Part shown: one piece after another, positions 26,473 through 55,891 of the stretch | Numbering within the stretch: the stretch's first letter is position 1 | Layout: every line of letters starts with the position of its first letter | Assembly (NCBI RefSeq): GCF_001677475.2 | Contig: NZ_CP015229.1 | Direction: 5' to 3' (one strand) | DNA: 64,000 bases | From: Escherichia coli | GTDB lineage: Bacteria > Pseudomonadota > Gammaproteobacteria > Enterobacterales > Enterobacteriaceae | Made by a program: the position numbers and the translations under genes | Notes under the pieces: model-generated | What the model saw: the letters and a program-made list of their open reading frames with translations, nothing else | What the model was told of the DNA's origin: nothing | Database searches by the model: none

Positions 26473-27468
26473 ATGTTTCACGTGGACAATAATACGGGTG
26501 TGCCTGTTATGCCGCCTGTTGCGGCTGAATTAAGCAAAACAACGCTTTATTTCACCGAAGGCGGGAACGGTATTCCACCCACTTATCCAGGACCAGACTG
26601 GTTTAATATTATTCAGTCTGAATTACTGAAAATTCTCGAAGAAGCCGGAATAACGCCGGATAAAGCAGATACCGGTCAGATAATGGCAGCCCTGAAAAAA
26701 CAGTTTATTACGAACAGTGGTTCAGCCGGAGCTATTGCCGGATTAACCGGTGAGAATAATACGTTCCCGTATTTTACCGGCGAAGACACAATGGCATTAA
26801 CGCCGCTCAGTGCGTTTGTGCGCAGTATTCTTGGAAAAAACAGCGGCAGTGAGTTTATTAAAGCAATTGGCCTGTCACCGGACACCCTTTTATCATCAGG
26901 GCGAATAACAGCATTAAGCGGTGGCTCACAGGGAGCAACCGGACTTCAGATGTACGAAGCGTATAACAACGGCTATCCCATTCCATACGGCAATGTGCTG
27001 CATCTGAAGGGGGGGACAGCGTCAGGTGAAGGCGAATTACTGATTGGCTGGAGTGGCACAAGTGGTGCACATGCCCCGGTTTACATCCGCTCAAGACGAG
27101 ACAATGACGAGGCGGAATGGTCTGAATGGGCACAGGTTTTTACCTCAAAAGACAGTTTCAACGCAGCAACTGCTACAAAACTCCAGACAGCCCGCAAGAT
27201 TAATAATGTGGCATTTGATGGCACCAGCGATATCACCATCAGCAGTACCGATTCTGGTGCTGTGCGTGATTTCAGATACACCAGCGAAGTGTTTCACAAT
27301 CCCGGAGGTAACGAAATCACCTGGACGTTTCGCGCGCCCTCAGGTTGCGTTTTGTCAGGTATTTACGTTCAGGAAACGGGAAGAAGTTCTTCGGATAACA
27401 TCGGCGGCGTGTATTACAAACAAACTCAGGTTTATATCAATGGCTCATGGCGCACCGTATCCGGTTAA
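26473..27468 (+). CDS. tail fibre protein (short, S-like)
   Basis: 331 aa; conserved fibre N-terminus (TEGGNGIPPTYPGPDWFNIIQSEL) and fibre repeat KLQTARKINNVAFDGTSDITI. Confidence 0.8.
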   Translation: MFHVDNNTGVPVMPPVAAELSKTTLYFTEGGNGIPPTYPGPDWFNIIQSELLKILEEAGITPDKADTGQIMAALKKQFITNSGSAGAIAGLTGENNTFPYFTGEDTMALTPLSAFVRSILGKNSGSEFIKAIGLSPDTLLSSGRITALSGGSQGATGLQMYEAYNNGYPIPYGNVLHLKGGTASGEGELLIGWSGTSGAHAPVYIRSRRDNDEAEWSEWAQVFTSKDSFNAATATKLQTARKINNVAFDGTSDITISSTDSGAVRDFRYTSEVFHNPGGNEITWTFRAPSGCVLSGIYVQETGRSSSDNIGGVYYKQTQVYINGSWRTVSG

Positions 27469-30961: not shown

Positions 30962-31147
30962 ATGGATGCTGTTCGTTGTAAAAACTGCAATAAATTGCTG
31001 TTTAAAGGAAGTTTTAAGCATATAGAAATCAAATGCCCTCGTTGTAAACGTTACATTGTCATGTCGAGTGCCCGGGAGCATCCCACGGAGCTGTATTGTG
31101 GGAAAAGAGAAGAAATCACGCATCCTTACAAAACCCTGCGTTATTGA
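30962..31147 (+). CDS. com: Com zinc-finger translational activator of mom
   Basis: 61 aa, C..C...17 aa...C..C (CKNCNKLLF...IKCPRCKRY), overlaps mom start as in Mu. Confidence 0.9.
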
Positions 31148-31793
31148 GTATGAAGGCCGTATTGTCGGCTATGGTTCAAGGGAACTGCGCGTTGAAACCA
31201 TATCCTGCTGGCTGGCCCGCACAATCATTCAGACAAAGCACTATTCCCGCCGTTTTGTGAATAACTCCTGGTTGCATCTGGGGGTATTCAGCGGACGTGA
31301 TCTGGTTGGCGTTCTCCAGTGGGGATACGCCCTTAATCCCAACTCAGGGCGTCGGGTCGTGCTGGAAACGGATAACCGGGGCTATATGGAACTGAACCGC
31401 ATGTGGTTACACGACGACATGCCCCGCAACTCTGAATCACGGGCTATCAGCTACGCACTGAAAACCATCAGGTTACTGTATCCATCAGTGGAGTGGGTTC
31501 AGTCCTTTGCAGACGAACGCTGCGGACGTGCAGGTGTTGTGTATCAGGCATCTAATTTTGATTTTATTGGTAGCCATGAAAGCACGTTCTACGAGCTGGA
31601 CGGCGAGTGGTATCACGAGATAACGATGAACGCGATTAAGCGTGGAGGACAACGAGGCGAGTATTTGCGGGCTAATAAGGAGCGGGCGGTGGTACACAAA
31701 TTTAATCAGTATCGCTACATCAGATTCCTGAACAAGCGCGCAAAAAAGCGACTAAATACTAAGCTATTCAGGATTCAGCCATACCCGAAGTGA
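31098..31793 (+). CDS. mom: Mom DNA-modification protein
   Basis: GTG at 31098 with GGAG 7 nt upstream gives 231 aa (length I recall for Mu Mom); sequence [46 protein letters not shown]. Confidence 0.85.
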
Positions 31794-31810
31794 TCCCACG
31801 TAATGAATAA

Positions 31811-31837
31811 AAAAGCAGCGGCCAATGCCGCTGTTTT
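31811..31837 (+). terminator. intrinsic terminator after mom
   Basis: CAGCGGC-CAAT-GCCGCTG followed by TTTT. Confidence 0.75.
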
Positions 31838-32227
<390 letters not shown>

Positions 32228-32356
32228 TTACCCGATTCTACGAGTTGTCATTTGTTACCGGTCAGTCTACACATTTCAGATGCTGCGTTAAAAAACCCAA
32301 GTACTTCAAGTAGCACATCGTCATCAACACCCAGCCCCAAGATACGGTGATAAAAT

Positions 32357-33391
32357 TCAAGCCTTAAGAGGCTTTGTGTATGTTCGTGTAATCCATCCAG
32401 TAATAAACTCGTCCCCTGATTTAACCTGCACGAAAAGCCATTGGCGATCTTTTTTATCTAAAACAGCCACTATAGTATTTTTGCCAATGCATTCAATCAC
32501 CTCACTATTTATAGAAGGACTGACGTGTAATCTTACGTTCTCACCAGTTATAAAACGAAAACCATTGAGATCTTCCCAACTAATTTCTTTGTTTTCTTTA
32601 ATTAATTGTTGTTTTGATATTGGTTTATCCTCAAACAGAGATATAAAATATGATTCTGCCTTGTGTATTCCCAGCAAGGTTTTCTCTTTTCCGTAATCAA
32701 TAAAAGCACCAAACACAACTTGAGAAAATATAACCATTAGTAACCATTGCAGTGGATAAGGAAGCTCTTTAAATGAATCAACAAACTTTGAGCTAGGTTT
32801 ATTTAATCCTTTATTTTGAACATTACTTTTGGTGTGTGATGTTTCAGTAGCACCTTCAGCATAAGCCTGCGCAATAGATGAAATCCCCTGCTCTATTATT
32901 TGATGTAATGAAGCATTTCTTGTTCTAGCATAGTGATCTAGTACTTTCTTTATGTCTTGGCTTACATCTGTTTTATAACTTGCACTTTGTTGTAATTCTT
33001 TAAGTATCGCTTGCATGTTATTTAAACCAGCTTGCTTATTAAGCACCTCAAGCTGTTTTCGTAATGGCATAGCTATTTCGGCCTGTTTCCTTAGCATTTG
33101 AATATATCTATTTGCGTCATGAGGGAAAAGAGCCTGAGTCTGTTTCTGTAAAATCGCGATATGTTCACGATACTTGCTGCCTATTCCAGCCAAGTTCGGC
33201 ATACTAGCCAATTGTTTTCGAAGAGAGTTACTAATTACAGCTTGTCTATTCAATCTTGTCATATTTTGAAAAGAATGTTTTTCTATTCCTAATTGTTTTT
33301 GCAAGATCGCTACGTGATCTTTGTATGATGGAATGAGCACTGACTGTTTATACAGTAACTTCAACTCATTAGAATTAGTAATTTTTGTCAT
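32357..33391 (-). CDS. repeat-containing protein with one TM segment and C-terminal SH3b-like domain
   Basis: ATG at 33391 (the track start 33424 is TTG); five L(Q/R)KQ repeats, TM LQWLLMVIFSQVVFGAFIDYG, C-terminus ...RLHVSPSINSEVI..IGKNTIVAVLDKKDRQWLFVQVKSGDEFITGWI; AT-rich. Confidence 0.6.
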   Translation of the reverse strand: MTKITNSNELKLLYKQSVLIPSYKDHVAILQKQLGIEKHSFQNMTRLNRQAVISNSLRKQLASMPNLAGIGSKYREHIAILQKQTQALFPHDANRYIQMLRKQAEIAMPLRKQLEVLNKQAGLNNMQAILKELQQSASYKTDVSQDIKKVLDHYARTRNASLHQIIEQGISSIAQAYAEGATETSHTKSNVQNKGLNKPSSKFVDSFKELPYPLQWLLMVIFSQVVFGAFIDYGKEKTLLGIHKAESYFISLFEDKPISKQQLIKENKEISWEDLNGFRFITGENVRLHVSPSINSEVIECIGKNTIVAVLDKKDRQWLFVQVKSGDEFITGWITRTYTKPLKA

Positions 33392-33465
33392 ATTATTCCA
33401 TTTATATAATAGAATATTACGCAACCAATGTTTTATTGATTGCGTTAATCTTTAACACAGAAAGA

Positions 33466-33942
33466 TCATTTGCCTCGTTTAATACATCCATCCATTTTGG
33501 CTTGTTGATACAACTTACTTAGCCCAGAAAGAGGGAATGTAGCAATTTTTTCATTATCAACATAAGCATCAATCATATTAGCATTTGAATCTGCTGCATC
33601 TTGCCAAAAGGCATACCACCAAGAATCTCCAACCATTGATCCAAGATTGCTAAAAGGATATTGCTCACCATCTATAGTTAATACTATTTTATTCTTGTCA
33701 GCATTATACTCTTTTTTATTATTCGACGAACTTAGCAACAAGCCTAAACTACCTGCACTATCTGGTGAACCATACATGAATCCCATATCACATAAAAAAC
33801 TTATCTTATCACCATTATGATTATGGATTGTATATTCTCTCCCCCCTCTCTCTTCAATTACATTCCATTGTAGAGGATCAATTTTTGCAAATGTTCCTGC
33901 TGAAACTAACGATACAAATAATAAAAACCATCTCATATTCAT
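33466..33942 (-). CDS. secreted/periplasmic protein of unknown function
   Basis: Signal peptide MNMRWFLLFVSLVSAGTFA-KI; 158 aa; AT-rich. Confidence 0.6.
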   Translation of the reverse strand: MNMRWFLLFVSLVSAGTFAKIDPLQWNVIEERGGREYTIHNHNGDKISFLCDMGFMYGSPDSAGSLGLLLSSSNNKKEYNADKNKIVLTIDGEQYPFSNLGSMVGDSWWYAFWQDAADSNANMIDAYVDNEKIATFPLSGLSKLYQQAKMDGCIKRGK

Positions 33943-33964
33943 TCTTTTCGCTTCTTATCTGTAA

Positions 33965-34315
33965 TTATTCTGCAATATCATTTGCCCATTGCACGGCAGC
34001 AAAATGAGTACCCAAACCACTCAGGAAAGCAATTACCCCCAAAACAATACTTGCTGCTGTTGATTCAAACAAAGTACCAATACTATAGCCAATAGCTCCC
34101 CATACTAAGCTAAATACAATCATCAATGGTATTGCCAGAAATTTTATTCTTAAACTAAAAATCAGTCCAAGAAAAGAACCGCCAAAGGCCCACCATGATT
34201 TAGACATTAAACCTATCAGTATTGACAGAATTCCTATTTCAATAAAGAGAATATTAGATTGCTCTTCATTGAATTTCGCATTTGTTACACCTTTACGAAC
34301 ATGTTCAGATGACAT
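33965..34315 (-). CDS. small 4-TM inner-membrane protein
   Basis: 116 aa with four hydrophobic spans; first gene of the minus-strand AT-rich cassette divergent from immI. Confidence 0.6.
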   Translation of the reverse strand: MSSEHVRKGVTNAKFNEEQSNILFIEIGILSILIGLMSKSWWAFGGSFLGLIFSLRIKFLAIPLMIVFSLVWGAIGYSIGTLFESTAASIVLGVIAFLSGLGTHFAAVQWANDIAE

Positions 34316-34461
34316 GATTAACTATCTCCTGCCACAGATAAAACGCCTTAAAATAACATTTTGTAGCATAAAGTTTCACCATGCAATGGTCAAAATCTTT
34401 GACCCATATCAATTAAACTCATACATTTTAGTTACCAGGGAAATAATTTACATGGTTACAA

Positions 34462-34478
34462 GTTGCTCTAATTATTTT
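34462..34478 (+). promoter_or_regulatory. C1 repressor operator (Op51-like)
   Basis: GTTGCTCTAATTATTTT, 14/17 to the P1 consensus ATTGCTCTAATAAATTT; upstream of immI. Confidence 0.6.
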
Positions 34479-34604
34479 ATTTTTTTAGCTTCATATGCTA
34501 CATTAACTTGCTTGCGTGCTAATGCATTTTCGGTTTATCCTAAACAGGCATCTTAGTAAAATGGATGCCGGGATTGGAACCCCGGATAATGCAAAAGGCG
34601 ACAC

Positions 34605-34627
34605 AGACGCCAAAAGCGTCTTTTTTT
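34605..34627 (+). terminator. strong intrinsic terminator upstream of c4
   Basis: AGACGC-CAAAA-GCGTCT + T7. Confidence 0.7.
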
Positions 34628-34676
34628 GTGTCATGCCATCGCACAGCCATACGTAGCACATAGCTCCGAGATCAAT

Positions 34677-34756
34677 GGTAGTGCTGGCTGGGCTGCCGAA
34701 AGGCAGGCCGGTTCCCTTTTGCGCCGGTAGTTCCAACCCAGTCAGTGCTACCGCCA
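34677..34756 (+). ncRNA. c4: c4 antisense immunity RNA (tRNA-like, RNase P substrate type)
   Basis: 11-bp terminal helix GGTAGTGCTGG/TCAGTGCTACC followed by GCCA; loop GTTCCAACCC complementary to ATTGGAAC at 34573-34580 and 34762-34769 (just upstream of the icd RBS). Confidence 0.65.
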
Positions 34757-34812
34757 TTGAGATTGGAACCTCACGCGGTAGCTCCTTAAATTAGCAAAAG
34801 GAGGCTGCCATT

Positions 34813-35034: not shown

Positions 35035-36074
35035 AAAAACCTCTCGTCACCCGGAATGAAATAGCCGAAGCGATCGCCCTGCATACTGCCTGTATGCCGA
35101 CACGGGAGATCCCCGGCGCAATTGCCAACTATTTCATGATAACCAAGCGTTTTTATACCCGGATAGATAAGGCTGTGATCAACAGGCTACTGATAGCCGA
35201 GATCAGGGATTATTTGATTGAACAAGGACGTCTACGTTACGCAACAGTGGCAGCAGAAATGAGAAAGGAGGCACATAGAATGACCGGTAATAATTTGAAT
35301 GTTGAAAAACCAGCACCTGTTGCTTCAGCTACGCCAGCACCAGCCGTGAATGTCATCCCCAACACCGGAGACACAATCGACAGCCAAACATTGTTGAAGA
35401 TGGTCAATGAGGCACGCAAGTTATGTGGAGAACCATTGGTTAGAAACAATAAATTCATCGAAAAAATACTCGACGAATTAGAAGGTGAGGACGGTTACAC
35501 AAAAAGTGCAACCGTGCCGCCAGGTGGCGGTACGCCTATGGTTGTCATAACCATGACCTACAAACAAGCCCTGCGAGTTGCCGCGCGCGAGTCAAAAGCG
35601 GTCCGCCGTTCGCTGATCGACAAACTGGAAGAATTGCAGCAGGCAAACTCCCCTGCCCCATCGATCCCCCAAACATTACCAGAAGCTCTACGCCTGGCTG
35701 CCGAGTTGGCAGAACAGAAAATGCAGTTGGAACAACAGCTGGTGGCCGCAGCCCCTAAAGTCGATTTTGCCGACCGGGTATCAGTGGCCAATGGAATCCT
35801 GATCGGGAACTTTGCAAAGGTCGTTGGACTTAAGCAAAACGCCCTTTTCTCATGGTTGCGCCAGAGCGGCATTCTCATGGCTTTTGGTGAGCGCAAAAAC
35901 GTACCGCGCCAGCAATACATTAATGCCGGGTATTTCACGGTGAAAGAAGTGGTGCTGGATGATGAAAATGGCTACCAGATACGGCTGACGCCCCAATTAA
36001 CGGGTAAAGGCCAGCAGTGGTTAACTCGCAAGCTACTTGATGCTGGTTTGTTAAAACCAGTAGCAATAGGTTAA
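35031..36074 (+). CDS. ant1: antirepressor Ant1 (Ant2 from an internal in-frame start)
   Basis: 347 aa; C-terminal KilA-C/ANT domain shared with KilA; immI position. Confidence 0.8.
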   Translation: MKKPLVTRNEIAEAIALHTACMPTREIPGAIANYFMITKRFYTRIDKAVINRLLIAEIRDYLIEQGRLRYATVAAEMRKEAHRMTGNNLNVEKPAPVASATPAPAVNVIPNTGDTIDSQTLLKMVNEARKLCGEPLVRNNKFIEKILDELEGEDGYTKSATVPPGGGTPMVVITMTYKQALRVAARESKAVRRSLIDKLEELQQANSPAPSIPQTLPEALRLAAELAEQKMQLEQQLVAAAPKVDFADRVSVANGILIGNFAKVVGLKQNALFSWLRQSGILMAFGERKNVPRQQYINAGYFTVKEVVLDDENGYQIRLTPQLTGKGQQWLTRKLLDAGLLKPVAIG

Positions 36075-36086
36075 TAAAAGAAAAAA

Positions 36087-36110
36087 ACCTGCCAGCAAAC
36101 TGGCAGGTTT
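36087..36110 (+). terminator. intrinsic terminator after ant
   Basis: ACCTGCCAG-CAAA-CTGGCAGGT + TT. Confidence 0.75.
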
Positions 36111-36152
36111 CTGAGCAGATCGTCCAACCCGATCTGGATCGAGTTAGAAAAA

Positions 36153-36169
36153 TTTGCTCTAATAAATTT
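36153..36169 (+). promoter_or_regulatory. C1 operator (Op53-like) controlling kilA-repL
   Basis: TTTGCTCTAATAAATTT, 16/17 to consensus, about 70 bp upstream of kilA. Confidence 0.8.
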
Positions 36170-36238
36170 CGTTTTATAAGTGCAAATAATCACCATTTCG
36201 AGCTGGTGATTGAAGGTTGATGCAAATTTGGAGAAAAA

Positions 36239-37039
36239 ATGCAACAAACATTCAATGCGGATATGAATATATCAAACCTTCATCAAAATGTCGATCCTTC
36301 AACCACTCTGCCCGTTATTTGTGGTGTTGAAATTACGACCGACCGCGCTGGCCGTTACAACCTTAATGCTCTACACAGAGCGAGCGGACTCGGTGCCCAT
36401 AAAGCGCCAGCTCAATGGCTAAGAACGCTGTCAGCCAAACAGCTCATCGAAGAGCTTGAAAAAGAAACTATGCAGAATTGCATAGTTTCGTTCGAAGGCC
36501 GTGGCGGCGGCACGTTTGCCCATGAATTGCTCGCTGTGGAGTACGCAGGCTGGATTTCTCCCGCGTTTCGGCTGAAGGTAAACCAGACATTTATCGACTA
36601 TCGAGCCGGAAGATTACAACCTGCTATTCCGCAGAGTCTCCCTGAAGCTCTCCGTTTGGCTGCCGACCTGGCAGAGCAAAAGCAACGGCTGGAGCAAAAA
36701 ATGCTTATGGATGCACCTAAAGTCGAATTCGCCGAACGCGTTGCTACCGCCAGCGGGGTTCTAATCGGCAACTATGCCAAAGTGCTCGGCCTGGGCCAAA
36801 ACTATCTCTTCACCTGGTTGCGTGATAACGGAATTCTGATCGCAACCGGTGAACGCAGGAACGTCCCCAAACAAGAATACATATCCCATGGGTATTTCAC
36901 CCTTAAAGAAACCGTGATCGATACAAGCAATGGAAGCAGGATTTCTTTCACGACTCGTATAACCGGCAAAGGTCAGCAGTGGCTGATGAAGCGATTGCTT
37001 GATGCTGGTGTGCTGGTACCTGTCGCGGCAACGCGCTAA
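36239..37039 (+). CDS. kilA: KilA (KilA-N + KilA-C domains)
   Basis: 266 aa; KilA-N motif (RYNLNALHRASG...KAP.QWLR); position before repL. Confidence 0.85.
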   Translation: MQQTFNADMNISNLHQNVDPSTTLPVICGVEITTDRAGRYNLNALHRASGLGAHKAPAQWLRTLSAKQLIEELEKETMQNCIVSFEGRGGGTFAHELLAVEYAGWISPAFRLKVNQTFIDYRAGRLQPAIPQSLPEALRLAADLAEQKQRLEQKMLMDAPKVEFAERVATASGVLIGNYAKVLGLGQNYLFTWLRDNGILIATGERRNVPKQEYISHGYFTLKETVIDTSNGSRISFTTRITGKGQQWLMKRLLDAGVLVPVAATR

Positions 37040-55863: not shown

Positions 55864-55891
55864 ATTGCTCTAATAAATTTATTAGTGTAAT
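55864..55891. promoter_or_regulatory. overlapping inverted C1 operator pair (Op72a/b-like) on the ban-operon promoter
   Basis: ATTGCTCTAATAAATTT 17/17 (55864-55880) and, on the minus strand, ATTACACTAATAAATTT 15/17 (55875-55891); -35 TTGCTC (55866), 17 bp, -10 TAATAT (55889). Confidence 0.85.

Follow-up and report, generated by a model that had tools for sequence, protein, structure and literature searches.

Among the carriers of resistance genes in Enterobacteriaceae, P1-like phage-plasmids are common, and the rules by which they coexist with or displace one another are poorly understood. An obvious candidate locus for competition among them is the slot that in P1 holds simA, simB and simC, one of eight hypervariable regions of low guanine-plus-cytosine (GC) content in these elements (PMC9603915). 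Beyond P1, no account of what the slot contains is known. Superinfection exclusion in P1 is conferred by sim, according to the passage of PMC9177967 that cites the original study (Kliem & Dreiseikelmann, 1989), and plaque formation requires none of the three genes (PMC10695390). The other described locus of concern here is ypjK-yfjS-yfjT of the cryptic prophage CP4-57 in Escherichia coli K-12, and for none of these three genes did we find a functional assignment in the literature. Here we analyze a stretch of 64,000 nucleotides from E. coli contig NZ_CP015229.1 (assembly GCF_001677475.2), hereafter the window, in which a cassette of three minus-strand genes, orfC-orfB-orfA (32357-34315, from the list of open reading frames), occupies the sim slot of a P1-like element with proteins that show no homology to Sim.

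The annotated gene order of P1 across the slot is pmgC, LPsit, simC, simB, simA, Oc4, c4, icd and ant, and that of the window is pmgC, LPsit, orfC, orfB, orfA, a C1 operator-like site, the C4 RNA, icd and ant, so that the cassette lies between pmgC/LPsit and Oc4/c4 and reads towards pmgC, at the sim location where an earlier note on this DNA had placed it. P1-like DNA extends rightwards from approximately 31919. The downstream boundary of the variable slot is LPsit, the late promoter of the pmgC-tub-pmgB-sit operon (32235-32252, minus strand, one mismatch to P1, located by P1 annotation and pattern search), and BLAST breakpoints show P1 homology picking up again at approximately 32256 on that side, whereas DNA from approximately 33336 to approximately 34840 is specific to the window when set against P1 and against a sibling allele, S1. 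On the upstream side the neighbor is the divergent C4 antisense RNA of immI (34671-34758, plus strand; Rfam RF01695, 76.7 bits against a gathering score of 45). The markedly AT-rich composition described earlier is borne out, with a GC fraction of 0.31-0.37 over 32400-34600 against 0.44-0.58 in the flanks and approximately 34% GC in the cassette itself. The three genes encode proteins of 116 residues (orfA, 33965-34315), 158 residues (orfB, 33466-33942) and 344 residues (orfC, 32357-33391), the last counted from the ATG at which RefSeq starts its 'SH3 domain-containing protein'; a TTG at 33424 would extend orfC to 355 residues (32357-33424).

The cassette thus resembles P1 simA-simB-simC in slot and orientation, in consisting of three small low-GC genes whose products carry export signals, and in belonging to a non-essential accessory region. 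It differs in that the Sim proteins are all signal-peptide proteins, whereas the cassette includes two integral membrane proteins, one of them with an SH3b domain, and in that an exclusion phenotype has been shown for sim alone. We carried out the comparison with Sim that the earlier note had proposed and rejected homology at both levels: the best pairwise BLASTP E values against SimC were 2.2 (orfC) and 6.5 (orfB), orfA gave no alignment with SimB, and hhalign of a YfjT profile, the family of orfB (see below), returned probabilities of 1.6% against SimC and 1.4% against SimB, with only the signal peptide aligned. The cassette is therefore not a known Sim system. Searches of the three proteins returned SH3_3 only from Pfam, nothing from NCBIfam, and from PHROGs three families of unknown function. 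Nor did we find any description of the cassette genes in the literature on YfjT, ypjK/yfjS, the sim slot or SH3 proteins of P1-like elements, so the impression of an unfamiliar combination stands for the genes themselves; replacement of sim as such had already been published, since the slot is a described hypervariable region (PMC9603915). What is already known, then, is sim replacement at the level of 'variable region 4', and what we found no description of is the gene content, the two-unit structure, the link to K-12 YfjT and the design of orfC, with its invariant anchor and variable repeats.

Gene-context look-ups and BLAST breakpoints defined at least six alleles of the slot, and they revise the idea of a single three-gene module. 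Read towards pmgC, the P1 allele is SimA-SimB-SimC (137 PLSDB records at at least 80% coverage) and that of the window, W, is orfA-YfjT-SH3, found in 26 PLSDB records and in 36 of 5,426 complete E. coli genomes, on plasmids only. W2, on plasmid NZ_CP019075.1, carries orfA-orfB at 95% DNA identity followed by a DUF4760 gene on the opposite strand; S1 is SimA-long - YfjT - SH3 (34 PLSDB records); S2, from Salmonella, is SimA-long (222 residues), an orfA-like gene (72% amino-acid identity) and YfjT; and S3 is SimA-long - YfjT. These siblings share with the window the slot, orfC, orfA or orfA plus orfB, and a YfjT gene, and differ in how the genes are combined. The pair orfA and orfB turns up without orfC, and orfC is found beside other partners or by itself at a different locus. 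From gene content and breakpoints we therefore conclude that recombination joined two units, orfA+orfB and orfC, each of which moves independently, and that the cassette is a mosaic of the two. The breakpoints agree in detail: between the window and S1, DNA homology starts at 33336, inside the 5' end of orfC, which means that the window orfC lacks about 50 N-terminal residues found in S1 (orfC is shared with S1 at 60-69% amino-acid identity), and between the window and S2 the shared stretch is the orfA reading frame alone. The 1,959 bases of the cassette are 100% identical to a copy in plasmid NZ_CP080229.1, and cassette plus flanks are 99.9% identical to CP099272.1; the INPHARED phage collection holds no DNA match, and the cassette was seen in plasmid records only. 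In W2 the DUF4760 protein (297 residues, L019:1550-2443) takes the place of the SH3 gene and has no PADLOC match.

Every protein seen in the slot (orfA, orfB, orfC, SimA, SimB, SimC and the SimA-long proteins of 163-222 residues) is exported or membrane-bound, which is most simply read as a slot for interchangeable modules that act in the envelope. Position and export signals, and these alone, lead us to infer tentatively that the cassette is a non-homologous functional counterpart of Sim that acts in exclusion at the envelope. It is also possible, if on the doubtful side, that the genes are morons for lysogenic conversion or host fitness, changing the envelope in ways unrelated to exclusion (tolerance of envelope stress, colicins, or peptidoglycan-targeting effectors or host factors) from a slot that is a permissive site for AT-rich cargo. 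The slot does accept unrelated cargo, such as the DUF4760 gene of W2, and low-GC variable regions of P1-like elements have been described as general sites of foreign-DNA uptake (PMC9603915); all three families, moreover, reach beyond the slot, YfjT into the non-P1 cryptic prophage CP4-57, orfA into a chromosomal-looking JGI contig where a homologue lies among metabolic genes, and orfC as a solo gene at another locus. [quoted passage not shown]

The protein family most consistently associated with the slot outside the sim allele is that of orfB. At the N-terminus of orfB, MNMRWFLLFVSLVSAGTFA|K, all three parts of a Sec signal (n-, h- and c-regions) are present, in line with the signal peptide named in the earlier note; the signal peptide comprises residues 1-19 (nt 33886-33942), aligns in all members of the family, and falls in a stretch (residues 1-20) of low confidence in the AlphaFold2 (AF2) model, as expected of a signal peptide. 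Since Cys is absent from the signal sequence, orfB is no lipoprotein; it is predicted to be secreted to the periplasm. The secreted protein is not the orphan it had appeared to be. A 14-sequence family profile aligned over its full length with E. coli K-12 YfjT (hhalign probability 99.7%, E 1.7e-25, 147 aligned columns), and the orfB cluster carries the precomputed Pfam assignment PF27224 (YfjT); a direct Pfam search of orfB returned no PF27224 match and only a sub-threshold DUF7713 match of 13.7 bits. On the strength of the profile alignment we assign orfB to the YfjT family (PF27224; K-12 CP4-57 yfjT). The family is small, with 21 members at E <= 0.001 in an exhaustive HMMER scan of 1.84 billion representatives, and its members have approximately 150 residues, a signal peptide and a conserved Cys pair; in the family alignments Cys51 and Trp109 are invariant and Cys153 and Trp26 nearly so. 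The AF2 model of orfB (predicted local distance difference test score (pLDDT) 85, predicted template-modeling score (pTM) 0.78) has nine beta-strands and two helices, and it matched nothing in the PDB by Foldseek at E <= 0.001; PDB sequence searches also gave no match, and the BFVD returned uncharacterized phage proteins only, one of them labeled 'putative adhesin'.

A YfjT-family gene is present in all of the non-sim alleles examined (5/5: W, W2, S1, S2 and S3), although the window orfB is only 28% identical to the YfjT proteins of S1 and S2. The locus shares with K-12 ypjK-yfjS-yfjT a true YfjT homologue with the same signal peptide and Cys pair, encoded within a mobile element after the gene of a small polytopic membrane protein; K-12 differs in that the lipoprotein YfjS lies between the two, in having no SH3 protein, and in being an integrated cryptic prophage rather than a P1-like plasmid. 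A small multi-TM (transmembrane) gene stands beside the YfjT gene in four settings (the window, S2, K-12 ypjK-yfjS-yfjT and contig L018). The small proteins of the window and S2 are homologous (72% identity), whereas orfA shows no sequence similarity to YpjK. A wider version of the exclusion hypothesis, which we consider rather improbable, would make YfjT proteins and the adjoining small polytopic protein a widespread exclusion class of mobile elements, with orfC a second, independent exclusion factor specific to P1-like elements; its SH3b domain would then bind peptidoglycan or the incoming tail/ejection apparatus, and its repeats would determine specificity as P1-like phages compete in an arms race.

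The third protein, orfC, combines repeats, a single TM helix and an SH3b domain, as the earlier note had described. The repeat region (residues 22-125; 33017-33328, minus strand) contains an internal duplication of approximately 40-50 residues with HxAILQKQ and LRKQ motifs, in which residues 22-60 align with residues 73-113 at a self-alignment score of 65 (24.7 +/- 4.8 in shuffles) and the motif phi-x-[KRNQ][KR]Q occurs four times against 0.3 expected. The N-terminal region of about 210 residues ahead of the membrane segment is helical. The TM helix, PLQWLLMVIFSQVVFGAFID (residues 213-232; 32696-32755, minus strand), has a hydropathy of 1.8 over 19 residues and a position conserved in the family, and the SH3b domain (Pfam SH3_3, PF08239) covers residues 285-338 (32378-32539, minus strand). 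On the 355-residue form of the protein the SH3_3 match reaches 26 bits, just below the gathering cut-off of 27, and on the isolated C-terminal domain it reaches 28.4 bits, above it; the model also matches 13 of 13 family members (best E 1.1e-10). For the SH3 region AF2 returned six beta-strands at low confidence. The full-length model was rejected as unusable for fold (mean pLDDT 39 despite a 32-sequence alignment), and for that reason it was left out of the fold search and read for secondary structure only; neither a profile nor a single-sequence search of the PDB gave a hit for orfC, and tblastn against INPHARED gave no match.

Homologues of orfC form 48 clusters from Escherichia, Salmonella, Citrobacter, Pseudocitrobacter and Yersinia, mostly on contigs of approximately 90-100 kb, and as judged from these contexts the family is small, enterobacterial and confined to P1-like elements and close relatives. 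The two ends of the protein evolve very differently. The last 135 or so residues (TM helix, linker and SH3b) are nearly invariant in the family alignment, the SH3b domain hardly varies between Escherichia, Salmonella, Citrobacter and Yersinia, and all 28 invariant columns lie in the C-terminal third, from residue 239 on; the N-terminal region is hypervariable, giving proteins of 344-481 residues with a repeat period of approximately 13-19 residues and variable copy number. That the TM-SH3b portion is nearly invariant across genera, even at a different locus, argues for a conserved ligand. The distant homologues at that other locus are solo genes (L003-L005 and L010) with longer and more regular repeat arrays, such as the 19-residue unit SERITKLAQGSTIADSVSL, present about eight times in P0046. 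In Salmonella and Citrobacter they lie on more distant P1-like elements of approximately 84-98 kb, a few kilobases from a gene for a 2,262-residue DarB-like methyltransferase/helicase, with small hypothetical proteins, an HNH protein or KilA-N proteins as immediate neighbors; the Yersinia homologue lies directly 3' of umuD/umuC-like genes.

P1 lysis genes lie elsewhere on the P1 map, and we consider it very unlikely that the cassette supplies lytic-cycle accessories, for example a peptidoglycan-binding helper of lysis, tail or release that is co-transcribed into the downstream late operon. The cassette does have the orientation of pmgC-tub-pmgB-sit and lies immediately upstream of it, but it is upstream of LPsit, the only late-promoter motif that the pattern search returned, and none lies within it. 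Its neighbors are pmgC on one side and c4/icd/ant on the other, with no endolysin or spanin gene among them, and the sole lysis-related match was a weak one, of a PHROG amidase to the SH3 region of orfC (E 0.008). In T1-like coliphages such as KanT1, standalone SH3 proteins have been proposed as lysis-module accessories that bind the cell wall (PMC13164509). Like orfC, the KanT1 protein (Drexlerviridae) is a phage-encoded SH3 fold with a Gram-negative host; it belongs, however, to a different family, DUF7244, has no TM anchor or repeats described, and is linked to holin, endolysin and spanin genes (PMC13164509). P1 and 137 PLSDB plasmids, furthermore, carry sim in place of the cassette, and sim is dispensable for plaque formation (PMC10695390).

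The smallest product, orfA, has four hydrophobic segments by hydropathy (residues 20-38, 41-56, 58-77 and 88-108, approximately), in keeping with the four TM spans counted earlier. Arg and Lys are confined to the N-terminal tail and to the short link between segments 2 and 3, a placement that fits a predicted N-in/C-in topology with four TM helices in the inner membrane. Together with the signal peptide of orfB and the TM-SH3b architecture of orfC, these predictions uphold the statement that all three products are envelope-directed. The gene has a Shine-Dalgarno sequence, AGGAG, 9 nt 5' of its ATG. The protein belongs to PHROG 15014 (function unknown), has no Pfam, NCBIfam or PADLOC match, and has homologues in 13 clusters, some of them outside P1-like elements. 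One, from Vibrio metschnikovii (62% identity), lies directly 3' of a gene for a 482-residue AAA_15/AAA_21/AAA_23 ATPase on a 3.4-kb contig (L011:950-3060), which may place the orfA family in a defense-island setting.

To gauge selection we computed ratios of non-synonymous to synonymous substitution rates (dN/dS) against divergent alleles from other plasmids. The ratio was 0.09 for orfA (against the Salmonella allele), 0.11-0.15 for the SH3 domain of orfC and 0.39-0.61 for its N-terminal region, and 0.38 and 0.76 in two comparisons for orfB, where amino-acid identity is 28% and dS is 1.0-2.1. Homologues exist for every one of the three products. These values indicate purifying selection on orfA, on orfC and, on weaker evidence, on orfB, and hence functional genes; the purifying selection rules out a reading of the region as junk DNA. 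The same values bear on the idea, which seems to us quite unlikely, that the cassette is an abortive-infection system or membrane toxin in which orfC senses envelope damage or a phage component and orfA, as a holin-like effector, kills the infected cell. A four-TM protein of this length is in the size class of holins and membrane toxins, the ATPase beside the Vibrio homologue is of a type (AAA_15/AAA_21) common in defense loci, and the variable repeats and invariant anchor of orfC resemble a sensor under diversifying pressure. Yet dN/dS in the repeat region stays below 1, orfA is under strong purifying selection, its partner is secreted and no antitoxin is obvious; nor did PADLOC give a match, and orfA and orfC are unlinked, each being found without the other.

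Upstream of orfA, a consensus scan identified a candidate sigma-70-like promoter (34365-34393, minus strand; TTGACC, 17 nt, TATGCT) whose -10 element ends 50 nt 5' of the orfA ATG. Promoter-like sites are not enriched in the region (seven, against 10.3 expected in shuffles), so that the scan by itself is no evidence of function. Farther upstream lies the C1 operator-like site GTTGCTCTAATTATTTT (34462-34478, plus strand; three mismatches to the consensus), which aligns with P1 Oc4/Op51 and overlaps a plus-strand c4 promoter-like site; its distance from the orfA ATG is 147 bp, matching the value of about 150 bp given before. Sites with up to three mismatches number six in the window against 0.16 expected. 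The candidate promoter is clear of this site, and the cassette is probably transcribed from a sigma-70 promoter of its own, outside the C1 operator-like site; the genes would then be made in the lysogen, and their expression there is plausible as far as the sequence signals go. Two hairpins lie within the cassette. The first, between orfB and orfC (33419-33445, minus strand; 11 pairs, four of them G-C), came from the scan for terminator-like structures and overlaps the alternative TTG start of orfC. The second, AAGCCTCTTAAGGCTT (32359-32374, minus strand), is short and lies just inside the 3' end of orfC, its last position coinciding with the first stop-codon base (TGA, 32357-32359). The T-tail is poor, and as a terminator of the cassette this hairpin is a weak candidate.

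Among envelope-acting exclusion proteins of other phages, T4 Imm and Sp, P22 SieA, HK97 gp15, T5 Llp and T1 Cor are phage- or prophage-encoded inner-membrane proteins, periplasmic proteins or lipoproteins that block DNA entry or a receptor; to our knowledge, neither a YfjT-like protein nor a TM-anchored SH3b domain is part of any of them. The cassette products resemble them in being small, accessory and fast-evolving envelope factors, a likeness of architecture and context only. If the cassette does act as a counterpart of Sim, its envelope proteins would block a superinfecting phage after adsorption, at penetration of the peptidoglycan or at entry of DNA through the periplasm and inner membrane. 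As core effector, orfB would be the likeliest candidate, perhaps with the adjoining small membrane protein, because it is periplasmic and because a YfjT gene is common to all the non-sim alleles. The SH3b domain of orfC would face peptidoglycan, or else a tail or ejection protein on its way in, which would need an N-in/C-out orientation, and the fast-evolving repeats would serve as a spacer, an oligomerization element or a specificity element. That orientation is argued for by the architecture of orfC, which has no signal peptide and 212 residues ahead of its single TM helix.

Several observations weigh against exclusion as the function. The role assigned to the cassette is drawn from its position and its export signals; BLASTP finds no homology between orfA, orfB or orfC and SimA, SimB or SimC, and structure searches show the orfB fold to be unlike known lysozyme or transglycosylase inhibitors and unlike known exclusion proteins. 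The charge flanking the orfC helix, 1.6 K+R N-terminally and 2.5 C-terminally, weakly favors C-in, and so a cytoplasmic SH3 domain. Genes of the YfjT and orfA families are also found in non-phage, chromosomal-looking settings, with which a general role in the envelope fits equally well. A function common to all three genes is not required either, since orfC occurs alone elsewhere. The candidate promoter matches the consensus weakly, and DNA of 33% GC in E. coli is a typical target of H-NS, so that expression in the lysogen is not assured. PADLOC-DB 2.0, finally, holds no match for orfA, orfB or orfC at E values up to 1, a silence to which we attach no weight because PADLOC also misses SimC.

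The slot draws on a small pool of exported and membrane proteins, namely the YfjT family, the four-TM protein, the TM-SH3b repeat protein, SimA-long, SimB and SimC, shuffled among alleles. Should these proteins be exclusion factors, they would define incompatibility or exclusion groups among phage-plasmids, K-12 yfjT would gain a testable function, and a membrane-anchored, peptidoglycan-binding architecture would join the known blocks to phage entry; were the wider YfjT-class version true, it would give the y-ome genes yfjT and ypjK their first function. Should the proteins have no part in exclusion, the cassette is ordinary accessory cargo that has landed in an already known recombination hotspot.

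The P1-like element that carries the cassette in the window is interrupted. P1 homology ends at 31918/31919, inside pmgC at about codon 95 of 188, where the right end of a Mu-like transposable prophage (30962-31919) has inserted; the pmgC reading frame of the window (31871-32203, 110 residues) runs into this foreign DNA. Because pmgC is essential for infectious P1 virions (PMC9024508; PMC10695390), the copy here is probably not a viable phage. By this evidence the element is probably defective as a phage, with its cassette intact; in CP099272.1, the near-identical relative mentioned above, pmgC is intact. The com and mom genes of the Mu-like prophage (30972-31818) are 89% identical to Mu 35778-36627, up to 90 bp from the Mu terminus. 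Its last 90 or so base pairs (31830-31918) do not align with Mu attR, and they contain three copies of ATCTTGAA(T/A)(A/G)A, at 31838, 31873 and 31895, as well as duplicated TTCCATAT and GCGCGCTT; these repeats may be binding sites for a transposase with a specificity unlike that of MuA.

Further C1 operator-like sites lie at 26851, 36153, 51320, 55864 and 55875. The site at 36153 has one mismatch and stands 5' of kilA, at the position of Op53; those at 55864 and 55875 form an overlapping inverted pair with zero and two mismatches; and that at 26851, with three mismatches, is inside the Mu-like part and may be due to chance. Directly 5' of the C4 RNA, where the immI leader is non-homologous to that of P1, Rfam returned a match to isrK, an Hfq-binding small RNA (34548-34626, plus strand; 58.9 bits against a gathering score of 50). 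SimA-long is encoded at four loci (L008:2901-3419, L006:2928-3419, L013:4234-4902 and L017:3372-3866; P1 simA is L002:3913-4071) and has a sub-threshold Pfam match to PTPlike_phytase (25.2 bits against a cut-off of 27). Over its first 45 residues the L008 protein matches P1 SimA (52 residues) exactly, which implies that a recombination breakpoint fell within simA in the lineage of P1; P1 SimA has the appearance of this longer secreted protein cut down to a 5' remnant.

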